From Candidatus Porifericomitaceae bacterium (GTDB taxonomy: Bacteria; Pseudomonadota; Gammaproteobacteria; Porifericomitales; Porifericomitaceae): a stretch of DNA of 64,000 nucleotides. Under the pieces are notes generated by a model, which searched no databases, was not told the DNA's origin, and saw only the letters and a list, made by a program, of their open reading frames with translations. Where the stretch lies: the NCBI GenBank assembly GCA_965212005.1, contig OZ243038.1, positions 2,193,432 to 2,257,431 of the forward strand. Reading direction: 5' to 3'. Below, piece by piece: positions 2,668 through 17,592 of this stretch (positions within the stretch are counted from its first letter, which is position 1; each line of letters opens with the position of its first letter). The translations under genes and the position numbers were made by a program.

Positions 2668-4215
2668 GTGCACCGGCGGTCGGGGGCGCGGGTTTGCTCG
2701 CGCCGAGGCCCAGCCAGAAATACCCTGTGCTGGATCCTGTCGTTGTTGCCGGCGCTGCTGTACCTGCCTTGGGTGTCCGGCTGTACCGTGCCGCCCGATG
2801 CGACCATCCGTTTCGGCATCCCTGTCGCCCCGTTGACTTTGGACCCGCGCCGCAGCAGCAGTGCCGCCTCCGAGCGGATTGGCCAACTGCTCTACCGCGC
2901 CTTAGTGCGTTTTAATGCGCAGTATCAGCCGGTCCCGGACCTGGCTGACTGGGAGCAAATGGACCGTAGACACTATCGCTTCACGCTGGGCGATGCCGGG
3001 CGTCGCTTTCACGATGGAAGCCGCCTGGTCGCTGCCGACGTAAAAGCGACCTACGACTGGATACTGGATCCGGACAACGGTTCCGTAAAGAGGGGTGCGC
3101 TGGATTCCATCGAGCGGGTCGAGACGGCGGGAAAGGACGTGGTCGACTTTTTTCTGCGCCGCCCGGATGCGCTGTTTCCTGCTCACCTGACGGTGGGCAT
3201 CGTGCCGGCGGCTCTGATCGCCGCCGGGCACGTGCTGGATGATCAGCCGATGGGCAGCGGGCCGTTTCGCTTTCTCGCCCGGCAGGCAGATGACACCCTG
3301 TCGCTGCTGCGCGTGAAGGATGGGCAGCGGGTCGATTTTGTCGTCGTGAAGGAGCCTGTGGTGCGCGTGCTTAAACTGGTCCGCGGCGAGCTGGATTTGA
3401 TCCAGGGCGAAGTTCCCTACGAAATGCGCGCCTGGCTGGAGCGGCATCCGCAAGTGCGCGTGCAAAGCCGCCCCGGTAACGTCTATACTTACGTGGGCTT
3501 TCATTTACAGCATCCGCTGTTGCGTAACTTGCTGGTGCGGCAGGCGATTTCTTATGCCTTGGACCGGGACGCGATCATTCGCTACATGATGCACGGAGAA
3601 GCGGAGAAGGCCGACTCGATGATGCCATCGGGCCACTGGCTGAAACACCCTGCGTTGCCGGAATATGAGTATGATCCGCCACGCGCGCGGCGCTTGCTGC
3701 AGCAGGCCGGATACTACGACGGCCCCAGGCCTGCGCTGGAGTACAAGACTTCCGGCAATCCTTTCCGCATCCGCCTGGCGACCGTGATCCAGCATCAGTT
3801 GGCCGAGGTTGGGCTGCAGGTGCGGCTGCGCCCGCTTGAATGGGGCACTTTTTTCGGCGACGTCCGCGAGGGACGCTTTCAACTCTACAGCTTGTCCTGG
3901 GTAGGCATTAAACTGCCCGATATTTACCGTCGTGTCTTTCACAGCGAGTCAGTACCGCCAGCGGGTGCCAACCGCGGACGCTACGCCGATGCCACCGTTG
4001 ATCGTTTGATCGATGAAGCCGAGCAGGCACGGAACGAGACCTCGCGGCGCAGCGCCTACCTGCAATTGCAGGAGCATCTGCATCAGCAATTGCCCTACGT
4101 CCCTTTATGGCACGAACACTACGTGTTGGCACTGCGTTCCGAGATCATCGGCTACCAGTTGGATGCGGAGGGAAGCTACCGCGGGCTGAGCGAAATTTAC
4201 CGGGAAGCGCAGTGA
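2668..4215 (+). CDS. ABC transporter substrate-binding protein, family 5 (peptide/nickel/opine-type, DppA/OppA-like), lipoprotein-type signal peptide
   Basis: 575-aa ORF with SBP_bac_5-like architecture. N-terminal LLPALLYLPWVSGC lipobox. GTG 2668 proposed as start; the ORF frame is open from 2488. Confidence 0.75.
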   Translation: MHRRSGARVCSRRGPARNTLCWILSLLPALLYLPWVSGCTVPPDATIRFGIPVAPLTLDPRRSSSAASERIGQLLYRALVRFNAQYQPVPDLADWEQMDRRHYRFTLGDAGRRFHDGSRLVAADVKATYDWILDPDNGSVKRGALDSIERVETAGKDVVDFFLRRPDALFPAHLTVGIVPAALIAAGHVLDDQPMGSGPFRFLARQADDTLSLLRVKDGQRVDFVVVKEPVVRVLKLVRGELDLIQGEVPYEMRAWLERHPQVRVQSRPGNVYTYVGFHLQHPLLRNLLVRQAISYALDRDAIIRYMMHGEAEKADSMMPSGHWLKHPALPEYEYDPPRARRLLQQAGYYDGPRPALEYKTSGNPFRIRLATVIQHQLAEVGLQVRLRPLEWGTFFGDVREGRFQLYSLSWVGIKLPDIYRRVFHSESVPPAGANRGRYADATVDRLIDEAEQARNETSRRSAYLQLQEHLHQQLPYVPLWHEHYVLALRSEIIGYQLDAEGSYRGLSEIYREAQ

Positions 4216-4739
4216 ACGCGGCGGCCGAACCGTGTATCCGTGTGCTATTGGATCAGCAGCTTCTGCTGCTCGAGCGCGAAGACGGCCGTCTGGAGCGCAG
4301 TTATATGATCTCCAGCGCGGCCAAAGGCGTCGGTGAGCAGTGGGGGAGCGAGTGCACGCCGCGCGGACGGCACCGGATCCGCCGCTGCATCGGTGCCGGC
4401 TGCGCCGAAAATACCGTCTTTGCGGCCCGGCGCCCTACCGGTGAGCTTTATTCCGCCGAGCTTGCACGCCGTCATCCAAACCGCGACTGGATCCTGACGC
4501 GGATTTTGTGGCTCGAAGGTATAGAGGAAGGGTTCAACCGGGGCGGCCGGGTAGACACGGGCCGGCGCCATATCTACATTCACGGCACGCCGGACCAGAC
4601 CCGGCTCGGGATCCCCGGCTCCCACGGCTGTATCCGCATGAGCAACCAGGAGATCATTGAATTGTACAATGCTGTCCGGGAAGGCACGCCGGTGTTCATC
4701 CACGAGAGCGCCGACTCGGAGCACATACAGCACCGGTAG
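4212..4739 (+). CDS. L,D-transpeptidase (YkuD domain)
   Basis: HIYIHGTPDQTRLGIPGSHGCIRM is the catalytic H..(S/T)HGC motif. GTG start overlaps the upstream stop (GTGA). Confidence 0.8.
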   Translation: MNAAAEPCIRVLLDQQLLLLEREDGRLERSYMISSAAKGVGEQWGSECTPRGRHRIRRCIGAGCAENTVFAARRPTGELYSAELARRHPNRDWILTRILWLEGIEEGFNRGGRVDTGRRHIYIHGTPDQTRLGIPGSHGCIRMSNQEIIELYNAVREGTPVFIHESADSEHIQHR

Positions 4740-4838: not shown

Positions 4839-5400
4839 TGAACCCCAAAATTTGGATAGTAGTTTAAGGTGTAGTTTAGTCTACATGAGGAACTACACAG
4901 AGGACAAAACGAAAGAAATACTCTCCTGGGCGGAAAGCGCGGGCTGCCTTGGCGGTGACCCGTGGAGATGGCACGAGCGCCGAGTTGGCACAGAAGTTCG
5001 GAGTGCACCCCAATAGGATTACCCAGTGGAAACGCGAAGCGCTCGATGGCATGGAGGATACCTTCACCGAGACGGCAAGCGCCGCCCCGAGCCGGAGGCG
5101 GACATCAAAACGCTGCAGGCCAAGGTCGGCTAACTCATTGTAGAGCGGTATTTTTTAGCCAGGGCCTTCGAGTGATCTTCCCCCTGTTGGGTAGCCATTC
5201 AAAGAGAGACAAAATATCTTATCCTGCCGCCTCTGCCTCGAACACAGCCGGCACCAGATAATGGAGTGAACTATGTGGTCGGGTGCCAGCCTGCATAAGC
5301 TCAGAAACATAGGGCATTTTTCGGGCCAGTAGCGGTGCCAATCCACGTTGACAATGGCGAAGAGCGGCAGTAGCTTTGAATAGTCGAAGGCTGTTGTTGG
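4839..5400 (+). mobile_element. IS3-family insertion sequence remnant (orfA with frameshifts, fragment of orfB integrase core; non-functional)
   Basis: Starts TGAACCCC (IS3-type IRL tip). Translation fragments AELAQKFGVHPNRITQWKREAL (HTH), EADIKTLQAKVG and LIVERYFLARA (leucine-zipper/frameshift region), VPIHVDNGEE (DDE core-like), in different frames. Confidence 0.6.
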
Positions 5401-5419
5401 CTGGGAGAGTAACGACGAG

Positions 5420-5872
5420 ATGATCGGCAGATATGGCTTGATATGCGCCGTTTTGGCATTGTTTCTGGGGGCAGGAGGGTGGTATGTGCTGGGTCCGGCA
5501 AAACTTGGGCGTGCGCCGGTGCCCGCCCCGCTGGCTGTTTCCGATTCCTCTGCCAGCGCTCCTGGCGATTCCGCCGCATCACCTTTTATAGGGCCGTCCG
5601 CTTCGAGCCCGGTCGCTTCCGGTGCGCCCGCACTTTTGTATCCGCAAAGCCCGGAAGAGCTGACGGGCATGAAGAGGCGTGCCGATCGGCTGATTGAAGA
5701 GACCGATGACTGGTTGAGCACCCTGCCGCCGTTACCCGGAGCAGGGACCGCCGCCGCTCCTGCTCCTGTCCTCAGCGATGAGGAATTTGAGCGCCGTCAG
5801 CTTGCCGTGAGCAACAAGGCGGCCCGCTTGCAGGAGCGTGCCGGGTCAGGCTCGCAGGAGGCCGGACCGTGA
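5420..5872 (+). CDS. Hypothetical membrane-anchored protein with Pro/Ala/Ser-rich low-complexity region
   Basis: N-terminal TM helix (LICAVLALFLGAGGWYVL) then PAS-rich linker. No recognisable domain. The start is uncertain. Confidence 0.35.
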   Translation: MIGRYGLICAVLALFLGAGGWYVLGPAKLGRAPVPAPLAVSDSSASAPGDSAASPFIGPSASSPVASGAPALLYPQSPEELTGMKRRADRLIEETDDWLSTLPPLPGAGTAAAPAPVLSDEEFERRQLAVSNKAARLQERAGSGSQEAGP

Positions 5873-5948: not shown

Positions 5949-6395
5949 ATGAACATTATAAAAAAACGATTGTTGCTGGCCATACTTGCCATATTTGTAT
6001 TGTTTGGAACAGCGTCCTGCAGTTATCCCTTTTACATGAAAGCATCAGGTAGTTTGGATCATTCAATTTTGTTCCAGTTTTTCAAAGAGGAAAATGATGA
6101 AAAGCCATCGAAATTCGATATTACTGTGTTTACAGTTTATGGACAGACAGCCGATGCTCAATGGATCCCCATATGGCGTCTCATTGGCGGCCAGACTCTG
6201 AGTAGTATTGAGTACGGTATAAATATACAGTATAAGGGGCTTACTGAAATCGTGCCGCATAAACCACTCGCAAAGGGTAAGCAATATGAAGCGGTTGCGG
6301 CAGGTTCAGTATGGCCTAAGCCAGGGTTGGGACACGCGAGAATTGATTTCTTTTTTGATGAAGGAGGCAATTTGATTCAGGGCAGTATCAAGTAA
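5949..6395 (+). CDS. Small secreted/lipoprotein, cassette copy 1 (148 aa; MNIIKKRLLLAILAIFVLFGTASC...)
   Basis: Signal peptide with Cys at +1 region (..FGTASC). AGGGG RBS 9 nt upstream of ATG. Four paralogous copies in tandem. Confidence 0.65.
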   Translation: MNIIKKRLLLAILAIFVLFGTASCSYPFYMKASGSLDHSILFQFFKEENDEKPSKFDITVFTVYGQTADAQWIPIWRLIGGQTLSSIEYGINIQYKGLTEIVPHKPLAKGKQYEAVAAGSVWPKPGLGHARIDFFFDEGGNLIQGSIK

Positions 6396-6445
6396 TCATT
6401 ATGCCTCCAAGAACCGGCTGGTTGTTACATCTGCATGTTTAAGGA

Positions 6446-6958
6446 TTGCCCTCAGCGTTCCCTCCGGCATATCCCCGGGATGGTTGGGAATGGTCGTGTA
6501 TTTATAATGCAGCCGCTGCTTCGCGACGGGCAAGCGGCAGAGCTTTAACTGCGGATGAAATAGAGTTGCTAGAGGGGGAGGGGGTCAGTTTCGATGGGTT
6601 AGATGTTTCGAAGGTGCGGATTATCAACGGAAAATATATTCCGTTTCAGAATCGTCCCATGGCTCCGGATGGCTATATCTACTGGCCGGGTGAGTGCGGT
6701 AACTTAGCATCATGCGGTGGAGTAGGTACGGCAAGAACTTTCATCCATGAAATGACACATGTTTGGCAACACCAGCAGGGTGTCAACGTGCTCGGTAGAG
6801 GGTTCCTGCTCCAGGCTGCAAGGGGTTTGAGCCTCGGTCTTTTTGATCCATACAGCCTTAAGGGATACGATCCCAACGGTCCCAACCTACCCTTCAACAT
6901 CGAGCAGGAGGCCGAAGTAAAGAGACTCGAGTATATAAGATGGAAGAAATCTCAATGA
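6446..6958 (+). CDS. HExxH metallopeptidase-motif protein, DUF4157-like (HEMTHVWQHQ), cassette copy 1
   Basis: GKYIPFQNRPMAPDGYIYWPG...TFIHEMTHVWQHQ matches the DUF4157 pattern (HExxHvxQ) from memory. TTG start; no signal peptide. Confidence 0.55.
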   Translation: MPSAFPPAYPRDGWEWSCIYNAAAASRRASGRALTADEIELLEGEGVSFDGLDVSKVRIINGKYIPFQNRPMAPDGYIYWPGECGNLASCGGVGTARTFIHEMTHVWQHQQGVNVLGRGFLLQAARGLSLGLFDPYSLKGYDPNGPNLPFNIEQEAEVKRLEYIRWKKSQ

Positions 6959-6985
6959 TGAAAACAATATCGTAGGGGTTGGCGG

Positions 6986-7423
6986 ATGAACATTATAAAA
7001 AAACGATTGTTGCTGGCCATACTTGCCATATTTGTATTGTTTGGAGCGTCCTGCAGTTATTCATTTTCCATGAAAGTATCAGGTAATTTGGATCATTCAA
7101 TTTTGTTCCAGTTTTTCAAAGAGGAAAATGATGAAAAGCCATCGAAATTCGATATTACTGGGTTTACAGTTTATAGACATACAGCCGATGCTCAATGGAT
7201 CGTCATATGGGATCTAATTGGCAGCCAGACTCTGAGCAGTATTGAGTACGGTATAAAGTATAAGGGGCTTACTGAAATCGTGCCGCATAAACCACTCGCA
7301 AAGGGTAAGCAATATGAAGCGATTGCGGAAGGTTCAGTCTGGCCTCGAGGGCCGACGGGGAGCGCGGGAATTGTTTTCTTTTTTGATGAAGGAGGCAATT
7401 TGATTCAGGGCTGGATCAAGTAA
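6986..7423 (+). CDS. Small secreted/lipoprotein, cassette copy 2 (145 aa)
   Basis: Paralog of 5949-6395 with substitutions clustered in the C-terminal third. Confidence 0.65.
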   Translation: MNIIKKRLLLAILAIFVLFGASCSYSFSMKVSGNLDHSILFQFFKEENDEKPSKFDITGFTVYRHTADAQWIVIWDLIGSQTLSSIEYGIKYKGLTEIVPHKPLAKGKQYEAIAEGSVWPRGPTGSAGIVFFFDEGGNLIQGWIK

Positions 7424-7473
7424 TCATTATGCTTCCAAGAACCGGCTGGTTGTTACATCTGCATGTTTAAGGA

Positions 7474-7989
7474 TTGCCCTCAGCGTTCCCTCCGGCATAT
7501 CCCCGGGATGGTTGGGAATGGTCGTGTATTTATAATGCAGCCGCTGCTTCGCGACGGGCAAGCGGCAGAGCTTTAACTGCGGATGAAGTAAAGGTGGCAA
7601 AGGAGGTCTTTGACAATAAGATCGATTATTCGAAGGTGCGGATTATCGACGGAAAATATATTCCGTTTCAGAATCGTCCCATGGCTCCGGATGGCTATAT
7701 CTACTGGCCGGGTGAGTGCGGTAACTTAGCATCATGCGGTGAAGTAGATACGGCAGACACTTTCATCCATGAAATGACACATGTTTGGCAACACCAGCAT
7801 GGTGTCAACGTGCTCGGTAGAGGGTTCCTGCTCCAGGCTGCAAGGGGTTTGAGCCTCGGTCTTTTTGATCCATACAGCCTTAAGGGATACGATTCCAAAA
7901 AAGCCTTCAGCTCCTACAATATCGAGCAGCAGGGCCAAATAGCGGTAGGCATCTATCGTGGCCATTATCCAAACAACATCAACTACTGA
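7474..7989 (+). CDS. HExxH/DUF4157-like protein, cassette copy 2 (distinct N-linker and C-terminus)
   Basis: Same HEMTHVWQHQ core. Differs from copy 1 at ADEVKVAKEVFDNKIDYS and in the C-terminal 35 aa. Confidence 0.55.
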   Translation: MPSAFPPAYPRDGWEWSCIYNAAAASRRASGRALTADEVKVAKEVFDNKIDYSKVRIIDGKYIPFQNRPMAPDGYIYWPGECGNLASCGEVDTADTFIHEMTHVWQHQHGVNVLGRGFLLQAARGLSLGLFDPYSLKGYDSKKAFSSYNIEQQGQIAVGIYRGHYPNNINY

Positions 7990-8005
7990 TGCTAGGGGTT
8001 GGCGG

Positions 8006-8443
8006 ATGAACATCATAAAAAAACGATTGTTGCTGGCCATACTTACCATATTTGTATTGTTTGGAACAGCGTCCTGCAGTTATCCCTTTTACATGAAAGC
8101 ATCAGGTAGCTTGGATCATTCAATTTTGTTCCGGTTTTTCAAAGAGAAAAATGATGAAAAGCCATCGAAATTCAAGATTAATATATTTATAGTTCAGGAA
8201 CAGACAGCCGATGCTCAATGGATCGTCATATGGCATCTACAAGGCAGCCAGACTCTGAGCAGTATTGAGTACGGTATAAAGTATAAGGGGCTTGCTGAAA
8301 TCGTGCCGCATAAACCACTCGCAAAGGGTAAGCAATATCGAGCATATGCAAATGGTTCAGTATGGCCTGGAAGGGGGGGGAGCGCGGTAACTGATTTCTT
8401 TTTTGATGAAGGAGGCAATTTGATTCAGGGCAGTATCAAGTAA
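8006..8443 (+). CDS. Small secreted/lipoprotein, cassette copy 3 (145 aa)
   Basis: MNIIKKRLLLAILTIFVLFGTASC... The ORF frame is open from 7958, but a conserved ATG/RBS lies at 8006. Confidence 0.65.
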   Translation: MNIIKKRLLLAILTIFVLFGTASCSYPFYMKASGSLDHSILFRFFKEKNDEKPSKFKINIFIVQEQTADAQWIVIWHLQGSQTLSSIEYGIKYKGLAEIVPHKPLAKGKQYRAYANGSVWPGRGGSAVTDFFFDEGGNLIQGSIK

Positions 8444-8472
8444 TCATTATGCCGCCAAGAACCGGCTGGTTA

Positions 8473-9034
8473 TTACATCTGCATGTTTAAGGATTGCCCT
8501 CAGCGTTCCCTCCGGCATATCCCCGGGATGGTTGGGAATGGTCGTGTATTTACAATGCAGCCGCTGCTTCGCGACGGGCAAGCGGCAGAGCTTTAACTGC
8601 GGATGAAGTGCGGCAGAGCTTTAACTGCGGATGAAATAGAGTTGCTAGAGGGGGAGGGGGTCAGTTTCGATGGGTTAGATGTTTCGAAGGTGCGGATTAT
8701 CAACGGAAAATATATTCCGTTTCAGAATCGTCCCATGGCTCCGGATGGCTATATCTACTGGCCGGGTGAGTGCGGTAACTTAGCATCATGCGGTGGAGTA
8801 GGTACGGCAAGAACTTTCATCCATGAAATGACACATGTTTGGCAACACCAGCAGGGTGTCAACGTGCTCGGTAGAGGGTTCCTGCTCCATGCTGCAAGGG
8901 TTTTGAGCCGCGATCTTTTTGATCCATACAGCCTTAAACACTACGATCCCAACGGTCCCAACCTACCCTTCAACATCGAGCAGGAGGCCCAAGTAAAGGT
9001 CCTCGAGTATATAAGATGGAAGGAATCTCAATGA
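8473..9034 (+). pseudogene. HExxH/DUF4157-like gene, cassette copy 3, N-terminal frame broken by a 28-bp internal duplication (possible restart at ATG 8603)
   Basis: gcggcagagctttaactgcggatgaa is duplicated at 8575-8632, shifting the conserved TTG-start leader out of frame. Downstream 143 codons are intact. Confidence 0.55.
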
Positions 9035-9061
9035 TGAAAACAATATCGTAGGGGTTGGCGG

Positions 9062-9499
9062 ATGAATATTATAAAAAAACGATTGTTGCTGGCCATACTT
9101 GCCATATTTGTATTGTTTGGAGCGTCCTGCAGTTATTCATTTTCCATGAAAGTATCAGGTAATTTGGATCATTCAATTTTGTTCCAGTTTTTCAAAGAGG
9201 AAAATGATGAAAAGCCATCGAAATTCGATATTACTGGGTTTACAGTTTATAGACATACAGCCGATGCTCAATGGATCGTCATATGGGATCTAATTGGCAG
9301 CCAGACTCTGAGCAGTATTGAGTACGGTATAAAGTATAAGGGGCTTACTGAGATCGTGCCGCATAAACCACTCGCAAAAGGTAAGCAATATGATGTTGTT
9401 GTGCACGGTTCAGTCTGGCCTCGAGGGCCGACGGGGGGCACGGGATTTGTTTTCTTTTTTGATGAAGGAGGCAATTTTATTCAGGGCTGGATCAAGTAA
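9062..9499 (+). CDS. Small secreted/lipoprotein, cassette copy 4 (145 aa)
   Basis: Nearly identical to copy 2. Confidence 0.65.
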   Translation: MNIIKKRLLLAILAIFVLFGASCSYSFSMKVSGNLDHSILFQFFKEENDEKPSKFDITGFTVYRHTADAQWIVIWDLIGSQTLSSIEYGIKYKGLTEIVPHKPLAKGKQYDVVVHGSVWPRGPTGGTGFVFFFDEGGNFIQGWIK

Positions 9500-9549
9500 T
9501 CATTATGCTTCCAAGAACCGGCTGGTTGTTACATCTGCATGTTTAAGGA

Positions 9550-9861
9550 TTGCCCTCAGCGTTCCCTCCGGCATATCCCCGGGATGGTTGGGAATGGTCG
9601 TGTATTTACAAGGATACGCCTAATTATAACCTCGTCGTTATAACAGAAGATGACGGTTACGCGGCGAGGATGTTCTACGTTAAGCCAGCGTTTGGAATTA
9701 AGGAAGGCACATAAGTATATTCTGGTCAAGTCATTGGCACATATCAAAATATAGGAGACAGAAAAGGGCATAGTGGGATCACAGAGCACGTTCATGTAGA
9801 AATTCGGCTCGAAGGTAAGTTATTATATCCCACAGACATCATTCCGATTCCTGAAAACTAG
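9550..9861 (+). pseudogene. Truncated 4th HExxH/DUF4157-like gene (first 20 codons) fused to a frameshifted M23 (LytM) peptidase 3' fragment
   Basis: LPSAFPPAYPRDGWEWSCIY then ...NLVVITEDDGYAARMFYVKPAFGIKEGT*. After a +1 shift: YSGQVIGTYQNIGDRKGHSGITEHVHVEIRLEGKLLYP (M23 HxH/GxxGxxGxT-like C-terminus). Ends 1 nt before the ATG at 9863. Confidence 0.6.
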
Positions 9862-9862
9862 C

Positions 9863-10516
9863 ATGCGCAGTTTAAGATCTTTGCTCCGATTGCTCGCCAG
9901 CAGCGTGATCATCATTCATTCCGCTTTTACGTGTGCTGCCGGCATGACTGATTGTGATGCTTTGGAACTGATTTCAGGTCACTCTGATTACAATTCGCTA
10001 GTCTGTGCTGGTGTTCAGAAAGTGGAAGAGCGAAAATATGAGGAAGCGATTTCTCTATTTGAGCAGGCCCTGGCTGTTCCGCTACGTGAGTGGTCTAACT
10101 TCCTGTTATTACCCCGGCTGGCTTTGGCACATCATCTGTCCGGCTCCGGACAAAAAGCGGAAAGCGTTTTGCTGAAAGCTGAGTTGACGTTGTCGGTATT
10201 TTTGGGTTTGATGACATGCGAACAGACGGAGACGGGTTACGTTGTTCGTCGAGCGTATGAAGATTATCTCACTGGCCAGGTGGGCAATGAGGTTGCAGCA
10301 ATTATGTGTGGCAATGAATATCATTACGTATCTGAGCGGGATACACTTGAACAAGTGCTGCTGGAAGCGAAGTTGATAGAGAATTATTTTGAGATCAAGC
10401 GGCAGATCGGCTTATCTGAAGGCGATGACTCCCAGGCTGCAGTGAGGCGTGGATTGCACGTCGGTGTCGGGGCAGGCCGTTATTGTTATAACAGGCGGCA
10501 TCATGGACAGGGTTAG
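9863..10516 (+). CDS. Secreted 217-aa protein, standalone paralog of the ankyrin protein N-terminal domain (copy 1)
   Basis: Signal peptide. Shares blocks DCDAxEL, YNSLVCxG, KYEEAIxxFEQAL, LLPRLALAHHLSGS, TLSVF, NYFEIKRQIG with the ankyrin protein N-domain. Confidence 0.6.
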   Translation: MRSLRSLLRLLASSVIIIHSAFTCAAGMTDCDALELISGHSDYNSLVCAGVQKVEERKYEEAISLFEQALAVPLREWSNFLLLPRLALAHHLSGSGQKAESVLLKAELTLSVFLGLMTCEQTETGYVVRRAYEDYLTGQVGNEVAAIMCGNEYHYVSERDTLEQVLLEAKLIENYFEIKRQIGLSEGDDSQAAVRRGLHVGVGAGRYCYNRRHHGQG

Positions 10517-10783
10517 TCTTCGATACAAAGATGCTCCATCGGATCGACTCACCAGTATAACCACGCGGAGGGGTTACGCGGTGGGGCAGCTTTACGTTAC
10601 TGCGGCACCTGGCATCCAGTCTGGAGTAAGCGCAGGGGCTGGTCAAGTTATTAGCACACGTCAAGGGCGGGGAGGCCGGCATCCTGGGAGCACAGAACGC
10701 GTTCCTGCAGAGCTTGCACATAACAGTCAGGTATGTGGAGGCCGGGGCGCTGATTTCGCTTCCGTAAGTAGCAGCCTGTACAA

Positions 10784-13549
10784 ATGAAGTCCTTGCTCTG
10801 GTGGCTGGTCGGCAGCGTTATTATTATTCATTCGGCTTTCGCGCATGCTGATGATGATAAGTTTGATTGTGATGCCTGGGAGCTTTTCGGGACAAGATTT
10901 GAGGGCTACGATTATTACAATTCGCTAGTCTGTTCTGGTATTAAGAACATGGAAAAGGGGCAATATGAGGAAGCCGTTGTCCAATTTGAGGAGGCCCTGA
11001 CTGTTCCGCTAAATGAATGGCCTAACTTTATGTTATTGCCCAGACTGGCTTTGGCCTATCATCTGTCCGGTTCCAGAGAAAAGGCAAAAAGAGTTCTGCT
11101 AAAAGCGAAGCGGACGCTGTCGGTATTTACTGGTTTGATTAAATGCGAAGTAAGAGATATCCCCACTTGGAGCGATTATATTATTATGCGCCAGGCAAAT
11201 GGTATTGCCCTCTCCTCCCGCGACGGAATGTGTGGTGAGATATATTTTCCATATTATGAGAGTAAGTCTCTTGGTGCAATGCGATATGATGCGAGGGTTG
11301 TAAAGAATTATTTTGAGATCAAGCGGCAGATGGGCTTTTCCACCCCCCTTCATGAGACGGCGCAAGAGGGGCGCACAGCAGTCATCCAGACGCTGATTGA
11401 GGCAGGTGCAGACGTCAATGTGGAAGATAGCGACGGCGAGACCCCGCTTCATAGGGCGGCCCGGGAAGGCCACACAGCAGTCGTCCAGACACTGATTCGG
11501 GCAGGTGCGGACGTCAATGCGAAGGATGGCGAGAGGAAGACCCCACTTCATGGGGCGGCGCGGGAAGGCGACACAGCAGTTATCCAGATGCTGATTGAGG
11601 CAGGTGCGGACGTCCATGCAAAGTACAGAGACGGTTCCCCGCTGCATGAGGCGGCATACAAAGGCCGCACAGAAGCCATCCGTATGCTGATTAAGGCAGG
11701 TGCGGACGTCAATGCAAGGACGTCGACTGACTACACCTCGCTTCATGGGGCGGCGTACAAGGGCTACCCGGAAACCGTCCGTATGCTGATTGAAGCAGGC
11801 GCAGACGTCAATGCGGAGGATATTTTATACGGTGAGACCCCGCTTCGTTTGGCGGCAAAAAAAGAACAAACAGAAGTCATCCGCATGCTGATTGAGGCAG
11901 GCGCGGACGTCAACATGGAGGCAATAGACGGGAGCACCTGGACTCCGCTTTACTGGGCGGTACAGGGGGGGCACATAGAAGTCATCAAGGTGCTGATTGA
12001 GGCAGGCGCGGATGTCAATGCAAGGTCCAGATACGGCGAGCCCCCGCTTCATGAGGCGGTCCGGGAAGGCCTGTCAGAAGGTGTTTCTGTGTTGATTGGG
12101 GCAGGCGCGGATGTCAATGCGAGAGATGGCCGCGGCGAGACCCCGCTTCATAATGCGGTATTGAGAGGCCGGTCAGAAAGTGTTTCTACGTTGATTGAGG
12201 CAGGTGCGGACGTCAATGCGAAGAATAACGAAGGCTGGACTCCGCTTTACTGGGCGGTACAGGAGGGGCGCATAGAAGTCATCCGCATGCTGATTGAGGC
12301 AGGCGCGGACGTCAACATGGAGGCAATAGACGGGAGCAACTGGACTTCGCTTTACTGGGCGGTACAGGAGGGGCACATAGAAGTCATCAAAGTGCTGATT
12401 GAGGCAGGCGTGGATGTCAATGCGACGTCCAGATACGGCGAGCCCCCGCTTCATGAGGCGGTCCGGGAAGGCCTGTCAGAAGGTGTTTTTGTGTTGATTG
12501 GGGCAGGTGCGGATGTCAATGCGAAAGACAGCCTCGGCGAGACCCCGCTTCGTTTGGCGGCAAAAACAGAACAAACAGAAGTCATCCGCATGCTGATTGA
12601 GGCAGGCGCAGACGTCAACATGGAGGCAATAGACGGGAGCAACTGGACTCCGCTTTACTGGGCGGTACAGGAGGGGGACATAGAAGCCATCCGCATGCTG
12701 ATTGAGGCAGGCGCGGATGTCAACGCAAGGTCCAGATACGGCGAGCCCCCGCTTCATGAGGCGGCCCGGGAAGGCCACAGAGCAGTCGTCCAGGCACTGA
12801 TTCGGGCAGGCGTGGATGTCAATGCGAAAGATAGCGGCGGCGAGACCCCGCTTCATGAGGTGGCACTGTCAGGCGATCCAGAACTTGTTGATGTGCTGAT
12901 TGAGGCAGGCGCGGATGTCAATGCAAGGTCCAGATACGGTGAGACCCCGCTTCATGAAGCGGTCCAGGAAGGCCACACAGCAGTCGTCCAGGCACTGATT
13001 CGGGCAGGCGTGGATGTGAATGCGAAAGATAGCGGTGGCGAGACCCTGCTTCATGAGGCGGCACTGTCTGGCGATCCAGAACTTGTTGATGTGCTGATTG
13101 AGGCAGGCGCGGATGTCAATGCGAAAGGTAGCAGCGGCGAGCCCCTGCTTCATGAGGCGGCCCGGGAAGGCCACACAGCAGTCGTCCGGGCACTGATTCG
13201 GGCAGGCGTGGATGTGAATGCGAAAGATAGCGGCGGCGAGACCCCGCTTCATGAGGCGGCATGGTCAGGCCTGTCAGAAGGTGTTTCTACGTTGATTGAG
13301 GCAGGTGCGGACGTCAATGCGAAGGATAACGAAGGCTGGACTCCGCTTCACAGGGCGGCACAGTCAGGCGAGCCAGAACTTGTTGATGTGCTGGTTGCCG
13401 CAGGCGCAGACGTGAATGCAAAGGATGCAGACGGAGACACGCCGTTGGATAAGACAAAATCCAAAATGGATCAAATGGATCGAAAAAATGAAGAATACGA
13501 TAAGTATCGGACAGTCGTTGACTTGCTGGATAGGGCAGGCGCAAGATAA
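10784..13549 (+). CDS. Secreted ankyrin-repeat protein, 921 aa (signal peptide + ~170-aa Cys-containing N-domain + ~21 ANK repeats + Lys/Asp-rich tail), copy 1
   Basis: Signal peptide ends IIIHSAFA|HADD. Repeats are 33 aa each, e.g. TPLHxAAxEGHTAVVQALIRAGADVNAKDxxGE. Confidence 0.85.
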   Translation: MKSLLWWLVGSVIIIHSAFAHADDDKFDCDAWELFGTRFEGYDYYNSLVCSGIKNMEKGQYEEAVVQFEEALTVPLNEWPNFMLLPRLALAYHLSGSREKAKRVLLKAKRTLSVFTGLIKCEVRDIPTWSDYIIMRQANGIALSSRDGMCGEIYFPYYESKSLGAMRYDARVVKNYFEIKRQMGFSTPLHETAQEGRTAVIQTLIEAGADVNVEDSDGETPLHRAAREGHTAVVQTLIRAGADVNAKDGERKTPLHGAAREGDTAVIQMLIEAGADVHAKYRDGSPLHEAAYKGRTEAIRMLIKAGADVNARTSTDYTSLHGAAYKGYPETVRMLIEAGADVNAEDILYGETPLRLAAKKEQTEVIRMLIEAGADVNMEAIDGSTWTPLYWAVQGGHIEVIKVLIEAGADVNARSRYGEPPLHEAVREGLSEGVSVLIGAGADVNARDGRGETPLHNAVLRGRSESVSTLIEAGADVNAKNNEGWTPLYWAVQEGRIEVIRMLIEAGADVNMEAIDGSNWTSLYWAVQEGHIEVIKVLIEAGVDVNATSRYGEPPLHEAVREGLSEGVFVLIGAGADVNAKDSLGETPLRLAAKTEQTEVIRMLIEAGADVNMEAIDGSNWTPLYWAVQEGDIEAIRMLIEAGADVNARSRYGEPPLHEAAREGHRAVVQALIRAGVDVNAKDSGGETPLHEVALSGDPELVDVLIEAGADVNARSRYGETPLHEAVQEGHTAVVQALIRAGVDVNAKDSGGETLLHEAALSGDPELVDVLIEAGADVNAKGSSGEPLLHEAAREGHTAVVRALIRAGVDVNAKDSGGETPLHEAAWSGLSEGVSTLIEAGADVNAKDNEGWTPLHRAAQSGEPELVDVLVAAGADVNAKDADGDTPLDKTKSKMDQMDRKNEEYDKYRTVVDLLDRAGAR

Positions 13550-13768
13550 TTGGGACTCGTCAGTGCCAGCCGGATAAGAACGTCCGGTCATGGATATGTC
13601 CTAACCGCCTTCGATGTCCGGAAAAACTGTTTTGCTTGCAAAGTCAAAGCGAGCAACGTTGGTTGCTAGCCGTTACGGCTAGATCGGCGCCAATCCACGT
13701 TGACAATGGCGAAGAGCGGCAGTAACTTTGAATAGTAGAAGGCTTTATGCCGATTCCTGAAAACTAGC

Positions 13769-14422
13769 ATGCGCAGTTCAAGATATTTGCTCCGATTGCT
13801 CGTCGGCAGCGTGATCATCATTCATTCCGCTTTTACGTGTGCTGCCGGCATGACTGATTGTGATGCTTTGGAACTGATTTCAGGTCACTCTGATTACAAT
13901 TCGCTAGTCTGTGCTGGTGTTCAGAAAGTGGAAGAGCGAAAATATGAGGAAGCGATTTCTCTATTTGAGCAGGCCCTGGCTGTTCCGCTACGTGAGTGGT
14001 CTAACTTCCTGTTATTACCCCGGCTGGCTTTGGCACATCATCTGTCCGGCTCCGGACAAAAAGCGGAAAGCGTTTTGCTGAAAGCTGAGTTGACGTTGTC
14101 GGTATTTGTGGGTTTGATGACATGCGAACAGACGGAGACGGGTTACGTTGTTCGTCGAGCGTATGAAGATTATCTCACTGGCCAGGTGGGCAATGAGGTT
14201 GCAGCAATTATGTGTGGCAATGAATATCATTACGTATCTGAGCGGGATACACTTGAACAAGTGCTGCTGGAAGCGAAGTTGATAGAGAATTATTTTGAGA
14301 TCAAGCGGCAGATCGGCTTATCTGAAGGCGATGACTCCCAGGCTGCAGTGAGGCGTGGATTGCACGTCGGTGTCGGGGCAGGCCGTTATTGTTATAACAG
14401 GCGGCATCATGGACAGGGTTAG
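13769..14422 (+). CDS. Secreted 217-aa N-domain paralog, copy 2
   Basis: About 98% identical to 9863-10516. Confidence 0.6.
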   Translation: MRSSRYLLRLLVGSVIIIHSAFTCAAGMTDCDALELISGHSDYNSLVCAGVQKVEERKYEEAISLFEQALAVPLREWSNFLLLPRLALAHHLSGSGQKAESVLLKAELTLSVFVGLMTCEQTETGYVVRRAYEDYLTGQVGNEVAAIMCGNEYHYVSERDTLEQVLLEAKLIENYFEIKRQIGLSEGDDSQAAVRRGLHVGVGAGRYCYNRRHHGQG

Positions 14423-14689
14423 TCTTCGATACAAAGATGCTCCATCTAATCGGCTCACCAGTATAACCACGCGGGGGGGTTACGCGGTGGGGCAGCGTAA
14501 CGTTACTGCGACGCCTGGAACTCAGTCTGGAGTAAGCGCAGGGGCTGGTCAAGTTATTAGCACACGTCAAGAGTGGGGAGGCCGGCATCCTGGGAGCACA
14601 GAACGCGTTCCTGCAGAGCTTGCACATAACAGTCAGGTATGTGGAGGCCGGGGCGCTGATTTCGCTTCCGTAAGTGGCAGCCTGTACAA

Positions 14690-16456
14690 ATGAAGTCCTT
14701 GCTCTGGTGGCTGGTCGGCAGCGTTATTATTATTCATTCGGCTTTCGCGCATGCTGATGATAAGTTGGATTGTGATGCCTGGGAGCTTTACGGGACAGGC
14801 TATCATTATTACAATTCGCTAGTCTGTTCTGGTATTAAGAACATGGAAAAGGGGCAATATGAGGAAGCCATTGTCCAATTTGAGGAGGCTCTGACTATTT
14901 GGATACATGAATGGCCTAACTTTATGTTATTGCCCAGACTGGCTTTGGCCTATCATCTGTCCGGTTCCAGAGAAAAGGCAAAAAGAGTTCTGCTAAAAGC
15001 GAAGCGGACGCTGTCGATACTTACTGGTTTGATTAAATGCGAAGAAAGAGATACCACCACTTTGAGAGATTATATTATTATGCGCCAGGCGAATGGTATT
15101 GCCCTCTCTGGAGACGACGTAATGTGTGGTTCGGTATTATATTTTCCATATTATGAGAGTAAGTCTCTTGGTGCAATGCGATATGATGCGAGGATTGTAA
15201 AGAATTATTTTGAGATCAAGCGGCAGATGGGCTTTTCCACCCCCCTTCATGAGACGGCGCAAGAGGGGCGCACAGCAGTCATCCAGACGCTGATTGAGGC
15301 AGGTGCAGACGTCAATGCGGAAGATAGCGACGGCGAGACCCCGCTTCATAGGGCGGCCCGGGAAGGCCACACAGCAGTCGTCCAGGCACTGATTCGGGCA
15401 GGCGCGGACGTCAATGCGAAGGATGGCGAGAGGAAGACCCCACTTCATGGGGCGGCGCGGGAAGGCGACACAGCAGTTATCCAGATGCTGATTGAGGCAG
15501 GTGCGGACGTCAATGCAAAGTACAGAGACGGCGGCTCCCCGCTGCATGAGGCGGCATACAAAGGCCGCACAGAAGCCATCCGTATGCTGATTAAGGCAGG
15601 TGCGGACGTCAATGCAAGTACGTCGACTGACTACACCCCGCTTCATGGGGCGGTGTACAAGGGCTACCCGGAAATCATCCGTATGCTGATTGAAGCAGGC
15701 GCGGACGTCAATGCGGCGGAGCGTTACTACGGTGAGACCTCGCTTCGTTTGGCGGCAAAAAAAGAACGAACAGAAGTCATCCGCATGCTGATTGAGGCAG
15801 GCGCGGACGTCAACATGGAGGCAATAGACGGGAGCAACTGGACTCCGCTTTACTGGGCGGTACAGGAGGGGCACATAGAAGTCATCAAGGTGCTGATTGG
15901 GGCAGGTGCGGATGTCAATGCAAGGTCCAGATACGGTGAGCCCCCGCTTCATGGGGCGGTCCAGAAAGGCCTGTCAGAAGGTGTTTCTGTGTTGATTGGG
16001 GCAGGCGCGGATGTCAATGCGAAAGATAGCCGCGGCGAGACCCCGCTTTATGAGGCGGCATTGAGAGGCCGGTCAGAAGGTATTTCTACGTTGATTGGGG
16101 CAGGTGCGGACGTCAATGCGAAGAATAACGAAGGCTGGACTCCTCTTCACAGGGCGGCACAGTCATGGTGGTCAGGCCTGTCAAAAGGTGTTTCTACGTT
16201 GATTGGGGCAGGTGCGGACGTCAATGCGAAGGATAACGAAGGCTGGACTCCGCTTCACAGGGCGGCACTGTCAGGCGATCCAGAACTTGTTGATGTGCTG
16301 GTTGCCGCAGGCGCAGACGTGAATGCAAAGGATGCAGACGGAGACACGCCGTTGGATAAGACAAAATCCAAAATGGATCAAATGGATCGAAAAAATGAAG
16401 AATACGATAAGTATCGGACAGTCGTTGACTTGCTGGATAGGGCAGGCGCAAGATAA
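14690..16456 (+). CDS. Secreted ankyrin-repeat protein, 588 aa, copy 2 (in-frame loss of ~11 ANK repeats, mosaic)
   Basis: Same N-domain and C-tail. The middle repeats are absent relative to copies 1 and 3. Junction region AAQSWWSGLSKGVSTL. Confidence 0.8.
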   Translation: MKSLLWWLVGSVIIIHSAFAHADDKLDCDAWELYGTGYHYYNSLVCSGIKNMEKGQYEEAIVQFEEALTIWIHEWPNFMLLPRLALAYHLSGSREKAKRVLLKAKRTLSILTGLIKCEERDTTTLRDYIIMRQANGIALSGDDVMCGSVLYFPYYESKSLGAMRYDARIVKNYFEIKRQMGFSTPLHETAQEGRTAVIQTLIEAGADVNAEDSDGETPLHRAAREGHTAVVQALIRAGADVNAKDGERKTPLHGAAREGDTAVIQMLIEAGADVNAKYRDGGSPLHEAAYKGRTEAIRMLIKAGADVNASTSTDYTPLHGAVYKGYPEIIRMLIEAGADVNAAERYYGETSLRLAAKKERTEVIRMLIEAGADVNMEAIDGSNWTPLYWAVQEGHIEVIKVLIGAGADVNARSRYGEPPLHGAVQKGLSEGVSVLIGAGADVNAKDSRGETPLYEAALRGRSEGISTLIGAGADVNAKNNEGWTPLHRAAQSWWSGLSKGVSTLIGAGADVNAKDNEGWTPLHRAALSGDPELVDVLVAAGADVNAKDADGDTPLDKTKSKMDQMDRKNEEYDKYRTVVDLLDRAGAR

Positions 16457-16674
16457 TTGGGACTCGTCAGTGCCAGCCGGATGAGAACGTCCGGTCATGG
16501 ATATGTCCTAACCGCCTTCGATGTCCGGAAAAACTGTTTTGCTTGCAAAGTCAAGCGAGCAACGTTGGTTGCTAGCCGTTACGGCTAGATCGGCGCCAAT
16601 CCACGTTGACAATGGCGAAGAGCGGCAGTAGCTTTGCATAGTAGAAGGCTTTATGCCGATTCCTGAAAACTAGC

Positions 16675-17328
16675 ATGCGCAGTTTAAGATCTTTGCTCCG
16701 ATTGCTCGCCAGCAGCGTGATCATCATTCATTCCGCTTTTACGTGTGCTGCCGGCATGACTGATTGTGATGCTTTGGAACTGATTTCAGGTCACTCTGAT
16801 TACAATTCGCTAGTCTGTGCTGGTGTTCAGAAAGTGGAAGAGCGAAAATATGAGGAAGCGATTTCTCTATTTGAGCAGGCCCTGGCTGTTCCGCTACGTG
16901 AGTGGTCTAACTTCCTGTTATTACCCCGGCTGGCTTTGGTACATCATCTGTCCGGCTCCGGACAAAAAGCGGAAAGCGTTTTGCTGAAAGCTGAGTTGAC
17001 GTTGTCGGTATTTGTGGGTTTGATGACATGCGAACAGACGGAGACGGGTTACGTTGTTCGTCGAGCGTATGAAGATTATCTCACTGGCCAGGTGGGCAAT
17101 GAGGTTGCAGCAATTATGTGTGGCAATGAATATCATTACGTATCTGAGCGGGATACACTTGAACAAGTGCTGCTGGAAGCGAAGTTGATAGAGAATTATT
17201 TTGAGATCAAGCGGCAGATCGGCTTATCTGAAGGCGATGACTCCCAGGCTGCAGTGAGGCGTGGATTGCACGTCGGTGTCGGGGCAGGCCGTTATTGTTA
17301 TAACAGGCGGCATCATGGACAGGGTTAG
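16675..17328 (+). CDS. Secreted 217-aa N-domain paralog, copy 3
   Basis: About 99% identical to copy 1. Confidence 0.6.
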   Translation: MRSLRSLLRLLASSVIIIHSAFTCAAGMTDCDALELISGHSDYNSLVCAGVQKVEERKYEEAISLFEQALAVPLREWSNFLLLPRLALVHHLSGSGQKAESVLLKAELTLSVFVGLMTCEQTETGYVVRRAYEDYLTGQVGNEVAAIMCGNEYHYVSERDTLEQVLLEAKLIENYFEIKRQIGLSEGDDSQAAVRRGLHVGVGAGRYCYNRRHHGQG

Positions 17329-17592
17329 TCTTCGATACGGAGATGCTCCATCGGATCGGCTCACCAGTATAACCACGGGGGGATACGCGGTGGGGCAGCT
17401 TTACGTTACTGCGGCGCCTGGAACTCAGTCTGGAGTTAGCGCAGGGGCTGGTCAAGTTATTAGCACACGTCAAGAGCGGGGAGGCCGGCATCCTGGGAGC
17501 ACAGAACGCGTTCCTGCAGAGCTTGCACATAACAGTCAGGTATGTGGAGGCCGGGGCGCTGATTTCGCTTCCGTAAGTAGCAGCCTGTACAA

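Follow-up and report, generated by a model that had tools for sequence, protein, structure and literature searches.

Orphan toxin/immunity arrays are well known from Rhs systems. In these arrays truncated toxin pieces and intact immunity genes lie together in low-GC regions with IS debris. Two further groups of effectors are related to the locus described here. The C-terminal domain of VgrG2b is a toxin that acts in the periplasm, and a periplasmic/lipoprotein immunity protein is encoded downstream of it (PMC6899460). M23 domains occur among T6SS effectors, including a Tpe-type effector in Acinetobacter (PMC6833914) and a DUF3289-M23 candidate in Enterobacter (PMC10763514); a small downstream gene is taken as the immunity gene. 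The animal protein LECT2 is a secreted signalling protein without peptidase activity in which a Tyr stands in place of one catalytic His (PMC9662197).

The stretch of DNA analyzed here (the window; 64,000 nt) contains an island of 43-55% GC, at about 5.9-20.5 kb, in a chromosome of 60-62% GC. On the right the island ends at metK (at 20542) and ahcY; on the left it is flanked by IS3-type debris, by an L,D-transpeptidase gene (4107-4739) and by a gene for an ABC substrate-binding protein. An OrfA HTH fragment of IS3 type lies in this debris at 4949-5143 on the plus strand (Pfam HTH_Tnp_1, 24.4 bits), with more debris at 5155-5721 on the minus strand. As in Rhs orphan toxin-immunity systems, arrays of truncated toxin pieces and intact immunity genes share a low-GC region with IS debris, the toxin domain occupies the extreme C-terminus of RHS-repeat relatives and the immunity gene follows immediately downstream. 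The locus differs from those systems in that the break in the remnant lies within the toxin fold and no piece of the Rhs core is retained; no full-length rhs gene was found in the 64-kb window.

The features of the island are listed in Table 1. Taken as a whole, they are likely to represent the dead remnant of an Rhs-type M23 toxin in front of its cognate immunity gene, within an orphan toxin/immunity island. On this explanation the island would be a store of immunity genes directed at two toxin families that act in the periplasm, with the toxins themselves decaying, and the immunity genes would be its likely selected parts.

Table 1. Features of the island, with positions in the window
Feature	Position	Strand	Remarks and basis
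Array of orphan HExxH and 145-aa lipoprotein-like units	5949..9499	+	
L1, lipoprotein-like	5949-6395	+	
H1, HExxH	6446-6958	+	
L2, lipoprotein-like	6986-7423	+	
H2, HExxH	7474-7989	+	
L3, lipoprotein-like	8006-8443	+	
H3, HExxH	8494-9034	+	frameshifted
L4, lipoprotein-like	9062-9499	+	
HicA piece, unit 1	6399-6533	-	part shared with unit 4 at 6399-6507
HicA piece, unit 2	7427-7600	-	part shared with unit 4 at 7427-7535
HicA piece, unit 3	8447-8581	-	part shared with unit 4 at 8447-8555
HicA C-terminal remnant, tail of repeat unit 4	9503..9611	-	
62 nt common to units 1-3	9550..9611	+	antisense to the HicA remnant; unit alignment
M23 remnant	9612..9861	+	protein homology detectable from 9604; Pfam, phmmer, alignment A3, tblastn
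In-frame nonsense codon TAA in the M23 remnant	9712-9714	+	translation
Last 18 nt of the M23 ORF (PIPEN, stop)	9844..9861	+	identical at 13750-13767 and 16656-16673; alignment A2
217-aa gene, copy 1	9863..10516	+	secreted TPR-like protein with conserved cysteines; candidate immunity protein
Second M23 remnant	10446..10733	+	tblastn E 2.6e-18, translations, alignment A3
Ankyrin gene, copy 1 (921 aa)	10784..13549	+	signal peptide, 217-like domain (49% identity), about 20 ankyrin repeats
217-aa gene, copy 2	13769-14422		
Second M23 remnant, copy 2	14352-14639		tblastn with family members
Ankyrin gene, copy 2 (588 aa)	14690-16456		
217-aa gene, copy 3	16675-17328		
Second M23 remnant, copy 3	17258-17542		tblastn with family members
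Ankyrin gene, copy 3 (918 aa)	17593-20349		

The M23 remnant and its left junction

The segment in front of the first 217-aa gene encodes part of an M23 peptidase domain, as the original prediction had proposed. The remnant aligns to positions 35-94 of the 96 in the Pfam Peptidase_M23 profile (PF01551) with 30.9 bits (cut-off 28.7; E 3.2e-7). When 1.84 billion representatives were searched with HMMER without an index, 188 matches reached E<=1e-3; the best had E 2.5e-15, and the top matches had 50-56% identity. At the sequence level, this resemblance to M23 is far above chance. A word-indexed homologue search with the 83-aa fragment gave no match, and in a scan of genome contigs the only match listed was a 34%-identical Cohnella M23.

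Translated from 9612, the remnant reads NLVVITEDDGYAARMFYVKP followed further on by GQVIGTYQNIGDRKGHSGITEHVHVEIRLEGKLLYP. In the frame of the TTG at 9550, the sequence reads SCIYKDTPNYNLVVITEDDGYAARMFYVKPAFGIKEGT, a stop, VYSGQVIGTYQNIGDRKGHSGITEHVHVEIRLEGKLLYPTDIIPIPEN and a second stop. Both halves lie in this one frame and are separated by the TAA codon; the 1-nt frameshift that had been proposed between them is absent. Downstream of the TAA there is no in-frame ATG, GTG or TTG. The M23 ORF ends with the TAG at 9859-9861, which leaves a gap of 1 nt before the ATG of the 217-aa gene at 9863, exactly the spacing given in the original prediction.

Alignment with intact relatives (alignment A3) places the start of the remnant in the 'PY.DDLSYRY' region, ~30 residues past the first zinc motif, HxxxD. 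This motif (HxGVD; H(K/Q/T/N)G(V/A/T)D in relatives) is missing, together with the lead-in W.NPTGG..RG.D.QG.G.YGA.R and the segment GQDVVAVTDG. The second motif, HxH, is kept as ITEHVHVEI, encoded at ~9784-9810. About 83 of the roughly 140 codons of the toxin module remain. Because of the in-frame TAA and the loss of profile positions 1-34, the segment 9604/9612-9861 is classified as a non-functional 3' remnant, a pseudogene, for which no present-day enzyme function is predicted. The truncation and the nonsense codon look recent, since the invariant (6 of 6) and near-invariant (14) positions of the family are all kept; recent decay also fits the adjoining repeat unit, which is 97-99% identical to unit 1/2. 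For dN/dS between the window and the L002 fragments, amino-acid identity is ~50% and synonymous sites are saturated. The fragment itself documents gene decay only, and its value lies in pointing to a testable new toxin/immunity family.

The left end of the remnant is sharply defined by the four-copy alignment of the array, in which units 1-4 are identical or nearly so up to 9611 and show no similarity from 9612 onwards. The M23 domain is cut in mid-fold and not at a domain boundary (alignment A3), which argues against a domain swap. The original prediction had the first 20 codons of an HExxH gene running into M23 sequence. It is correct that the 62 nt from the TTG at 9550 are common to units 1-3 and that the sequence then changes, but these 62 nt (20.7 codons) are not demonstrably an HExxH N-terminus. 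They lie upstream of the conserved HExxH domain and of the point, 'GRALT', at which homology starts, are not conserved in HExxH homologues and are antisense HicA sequence. The TTG directly follows AAGGA without a spacer, and by inspection there is no usable ribosome-binding spacing. What had been described as fusion to a truncated HExxH gene is best read as a DNA junction, not a protein fusion.

We propose that an event at 9611/9612 removed the 5' half of the toxin gene, including HxGVD and the toxin's carrier, and joined the middle of the M23 gene to the right end of the unrelated HExxH/lipoprotein/HicA' array. The TAA at 9712 would be a second inactivating change. Deletion or illegitimate recombination at the array's right end is the presumed origin of the junction; the originally suggested invasion by the cassette array is a possible alternative, and the two account for the junction equally well. 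As many as 8 nt (ATTTACAA, 9604-9611) can be assigned to either side of the junction and would fit microhomology. The break also falls within about 5 nt of the boundary between the HicA remnant and HExxH in units 1-3, a coincidence not predicted by random deletion.

Since the ~1-kb repeat (3.56 copies, up to 99% identity) and the three 3-4 kb modules, ~97-99% identical to one another, make the region prone to misjoins, we also considered that an assembly or sequencing error produced the junction, the stop codon or the two together, and that the M23 gene is intact in the real genome. This is highly improbable, given that the source contig is 2.5 Mb, that the junction does not coincide with a collapse-prone repeat/repeat boundary, that the M23 side is unique in the window at the DNA level and that comparable remnants occur in independent assemblies (loci L002/L003 and L004, described below).

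Carriers of the M23 subfamily and its relation to LECT2

The relatives of the remnant indicate what kind of protein it came from. Among the best 15 of the 188 matches, 13 end within 6 residues of the C-terminus. The long matches are RHS-repeat proteins that end in a full M23 domain (profile 2-96). In these, RHS_repeat scores above the Pfam cut-off in P0077 (named 'RHS repeat-associated protein' by its JGI source), P0117, P0166 and P0170 and just under the cut-off in P0086; P0084 has an RHS match below cut-off. A DPxGL-type Rhs core end lies shortly before the M23 domain in P0074 and in the ORF of locus L007, where it takes the form 'DPFGL' and directly precedes the domain. Other close relatives of the remnant are short orphan ORFs with a complete C-terminal domain. 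Because the M23 domain is C-terminal in its RHS-repeat relatives, we assign it as a putative polymorphic-toxin C-terminal domain of the Rhs type. The intact toxin would have carried an M23-fold, LECT2-like domain at the C-terminus of an Rhs-type protein. The intact domain is presumed to be toxic, and its site of action would be the periplasm.

A profile of the M23 subfamily, searched against the PDB, matched animal LECT2 with E 8e-15 (9non_B, 5b0h_A); the next matches, bacterial and phage M23-fold proteins, reached only about 1e-4. To our knowledge, LECT2 is the only mammalian M23-fold protein. The animal protein and the bacterial toxin family have in common the motifs C(D)..GCG.YGA.R, H.GVD, (M/L)FY(V/I)KP and HVH(V/I)E. 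By inspection of the alignment, the catalytic His of Y-x-H-L is replaced by Tyr: the window has RMFYVKP (ARMFYVKP, 9655-9680), relatives have RQLYV and LECT2 has KMFYIKP. The Tyr is a trait of the subfamily and not a sign of decay, and peptidoglycan hydrolysis by the subfamily is therefore not assured. These LECT2-like toxins raise the question of whether an M23 variant lacking this His still cleaves anything.

LECT2, the best relative of the toxin family in the structural database, is an animal signalling protein, whereas the bacterial M23 domain is found in a toxin/immunity context. Among prokaryotic proteins, the bacterial domain may be the one most closely related to animal LECT2, and it is possibly also the source of that protein; their affinity offers a starting point on the origin of LECT2. 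A literature search found no paper tying LECT2 to polymorphic toxins, and the Rhs-borne LECT2-like M23 subfamily is not described in the literature searched. The M23 effectors of the T6SS likewise use the M23 fold as an antibacterial payload. In contrast to them, the subfamily in the window is nearer to LECT2, has Tyr for one catalytic His and is carried by Rhs proteins instead of a LysM/NlpD-type carrier.

The 217-aa protein family and the triplicated modules

A homologue of the 217-aa protein lies directly after the M23 gene in 6 of the 6 lineages examined. The stop-to-start distance in these related loci ranges from -4 to +35 nt, unless an IS element lies between the two genes. Intact pairs, which the original prediction had proposed to look for, are present in locus L006, in which a 222-aa M23 protein overlaps a 219-aa homologue (E 1e-18) by 4 nt, and in L007-L009, in which a 216-aa ORF (Pfam M23 2-96/96) stops at 4243 and a 185-aa homologue (E 4e-28) begins at 4245. 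In L005, a 509-aa Rhs fragment with an intact M23 domain is followed by an IS element and then by the homologue (E 1e-26). In L002/L003 an IS3 remnant interrupts the M23 copy, of which GGSVVAVTDG...TLIP is left as an open ORF, and in L004 the domain is complete but frameshifted; the 217-like gene is next in both. The 217-like genes of these two genomes, each with its M23 piece directly upstream, were the only two non-self homologues of the 217-aa protein returned by a word-indexed database. Four M23 pieces were located in the window with tblastn, each with a 217-like ORF directly after it.

The proteins of the 217-like family have N-terminal signal peptides, some with a lipobox, as well as invariant cysteines and a weak similarity to TPR proteins. 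A role as periplasmic immunity protein fits these features. The family has no Pfam or NCBIfam match above cut-off, its PDB search returned generic TPR matches only, and a metagenome scan with the 217-like alignment A6 found no relative. Because adjacency recurs in six lineages, the M23 and 217-like genes appear to be an ancestral pair, whose function we infer to be that of an M23 toxin domain with its periplasmic immunity protein. The remnant would survive because it abuts its cognate 217-aa immunity gene, which was itself kept, presumably because it protects the cell when its neighbours deliver such toxins.

The three 217-aa ORFs are longer at their 3' ends than their homologues. Their last ~33 codons (10404-10516 and the copies) overlap the following M23 remnant in a different reading frame, and the homologues are ~33 codons shorter, ending ...FEIKRQI...; the natural stop of the 217-aa ORFs has probably been lost. 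In the 217-aa cluster of P0064 the source genome holds five members, two of them of 190 aa, which reflects either more copies outside the window or alternative start calls.

The M23 toxin/217-like immunity family is an uncharacterised one, and its immunity partner is new and previously unnamed. We lean towards a reading in which the remnant points to a family that pairs a LECT2-like Rhs-borne toxin with a new Cys-containing, TPR-like periplasmic immunity protein. In this genome the partner would, by the same reading, also have been fused to ankyrin repeats (about 20) and triplicated.

Another explanation for the persistence of the fragment is that it is maintained as an element in its own right, either as a short M23 half-domain protein or as a promoter or translational-coupling signal that serves the 217-aa gene. 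All 217-like ORFs have an M23 piece in front of them, the distance is conserved (1-2 nt, or an overlap of 4 nt), and the open 74-aa ORF of L002 could be under selection for a short product. However, the window remnant has no start codon after its in-frame TAA, and the truncation differs by locus (IS3 remnant in L002, frameshift in L004, mid-domain in the window). In M23 remnants 2-4 neither metal motif survives, and a stop and an indel of 3 nt are present. Before copies 2 and 3 of the 217 gene the final 18 nt of the fragment are kept, and a new ATG there gives a 6-codon ORF, MPIPEN, yet the fragment proper is missing from these copies. Two weak sigma-70-like sites lie inside the fragment, but in the promoter/terminator scan the promoter-like sites (5 vs 2.9 +/- 1.7 in shuffles) are not above expectation. 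Maintenance of the fragment is thus an unlikely explanation, and we continue to regard it as a dead toxin remnant next to its immunity gene.

The first ~186 residues of the ankyrin proteins are 48-50% identical to the 217-aa protein. The ankyrin arrays are internally highly repetitive, with a 99-nt period, and their lengths differ among the three proteins. Remnants 2-4 each lie between a 217-aa gene and an ankyrin gene and span the region from the Zn motif through the HxH position. They are dead: Q-stop-GVD stands where relatives have HxGVD, TERVPAE replaces TEHVHVE, and the third copy has a 3-nt indel. Pfam did not detect them at E<=0.01; the evidence for them is tblastn against family members. 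The island can be described as two diverged toxin-remnant/immunity pairs, M23'-217 and M23''-[217-like+ANK], which are triplicated as a block.

These data refine the ancestral operon of M23 peptidase, 217-aa protein and ankyrin protein that had been postulated. The M23/217 part is borne out by L002-L009, but the ankyrin part is not: the ankyrin genes have M23 remnants of their own, no related locus has an ankyrin gene after its 217-like gene or an ankyrin member in its pair, and the fusion of a 217-like domain to ankyrin repeats occurs in no related locus.

The triplication starts at ~9841-9844, so that copies 2 and 3 keep no more of the first M23 ORF than its final 18 nt. Among the triplicated modules, divergence is 0.4-0.9% in the 217 core, 3.5-4.5% in the M23 remnant and 2.6-5.5% in the ankyrin N-domain. 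This pattern is compatible with relaxed constraint on the M23 remnant, although gene conversion could also homogenise the 217 copies. Both module junctions (13616-13746 and 16522-16652) carry a filler of ~131 nt, which does not recur behind the third module. Within it is a 60-nt copy (95% identity) of 5333-5392, a segment upstream of the HExxH array. Each junction also creates a mini-ORF, ATG CCG ATT CCT GAA AAC TAG, that ends 1 nt before the 217 start.

The HExxH/lipoprotein array

The segment 5936-9611 consists of 3.56 tandem units of ~1030 bp each. H1 and H3 are 99% identical and L2 and L4 97% identical, which sets the coherent phase of the unit as [HExxH-lipoprotein-HicA']. A single simple tandem duplication was considered as the origin of the array and rejected on the number of units and these identities. 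The sequence counted as a fifth HExxH gene in the original prediction belongs to the fourth repeat unit; the ORF of unit 3 is split by a duplication into 8494-8634 and 8603-9034 and was probably counted twice.

The HExxH proteins match the solved effector domain of P. aeruginosa VgrG2b (PDB 6H56_A) with E 1e-19 over query residues 29-161, with FIHEMTHVWQHQ identical in both. In 63 of 63 HExxH homologues, as in 6H56, the similarity begins at residue ~29 with 'GRALT'. Upstream of this point the relatives that were inspected have PAAR domains or Gly-rich linkers, and for two relatives the source gives the name VgrG or 'vgr related'. The HExxH domain is therefore not placed by us among N-terminal carrier modules but is predicted to be a C-terminal toxin domain of the VgrG2b type. 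Like VgrG2b with PA0261 (the Tpe-Tpi family), the HExxH genes in the window precede a small envelope-targeted, lipoprotein-like protein; unlike VgrG2b, their domains are orphans that lack a carrier of the VgrG, PAAR or Rhs kind, and one of the copies has a frameshift. No sequence link was found between the 145-aa lipoprotein and PA0261, and a PDB search with the lipoprotein gave no match. The array units can be explained as tandem copies of toxin/immunity modules.

The minus strand at the tail of unit 4 matches Pfam HicA_toxin (PF07927) with 27.2 bits (cut-off 27.0), over profile positions 33-57 of 58, and the PDB entry 1WHZ with E 0.018. This piece, which every unit carries, appears to be a C-terminal remnant of HicA, ending in TTIPNHPGDMPEGTLRAILKHADVTTSRFLEA and a stop, and not a gene; it runs antisense to the apparent 5' ends of the HExxH ORFs.

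The original prediction suggested that the M23 domain may once have been the toxic C-terminus of a protein with a DUF4157/HExxH N-terminus, and that an M23-217aa-ankyrin operon was later invaded by the array. A toxic C-terminal M23 domain is what the RHS-repeat relatives suggest, the M23-217 linkage is real and the HExxH ORF frame from TTG 9550 does continue in frame into M23 sequence. The proposed carrier is where the model fails: the HExxH genes score 9.9 bits against Pfam eCIS_core/DUF4157 (PF13699; cut-off 22) and 14.1 bits against DUF6782 (cut-off 27), and in its relatives the HExxH domain itself occupies the C-terminal effector position. An HExxH/DUF4157 module is absent from all domain-scanned M23 relatives, in which the identifiable carriers are RHS-repeat proteins. 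Just the 62 nt of antisense HicA sequence in front of the conserved HExxH domain are shared, the M23 domain is cut in mid-fold, and the ankyrin genes, with M23 remnants of their own, have no counterpart in related loci. We give this model very little weight. The M23 and HExxH domains would instead be alternative toxin payloads, with M23 never the cargo of an HExxH module.

Comparison of the carriers suggests that HExxH and M23 payloads may have been exchanged on the same kind of carrier protein. A Gly-rich pre-toxin linker, GG(K/R)FGHGF...GGKFANGA, is common to P0002 and P0007, which have HExxH domains, and to P0074, which has an M23 domain.

A further feature of the array is a 28-nt tandem duplication at 8575-8630 (GCGGCAGAGCTTTAACTGCGGATGAAGT / ...AAAT), which puts the third HExxH gene out of frame. 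At its end the first copy of the duplication resembles unit 2 and the second copy resembles unit 1, so that the duplication looks like a scar of the recombination that made unit 3.
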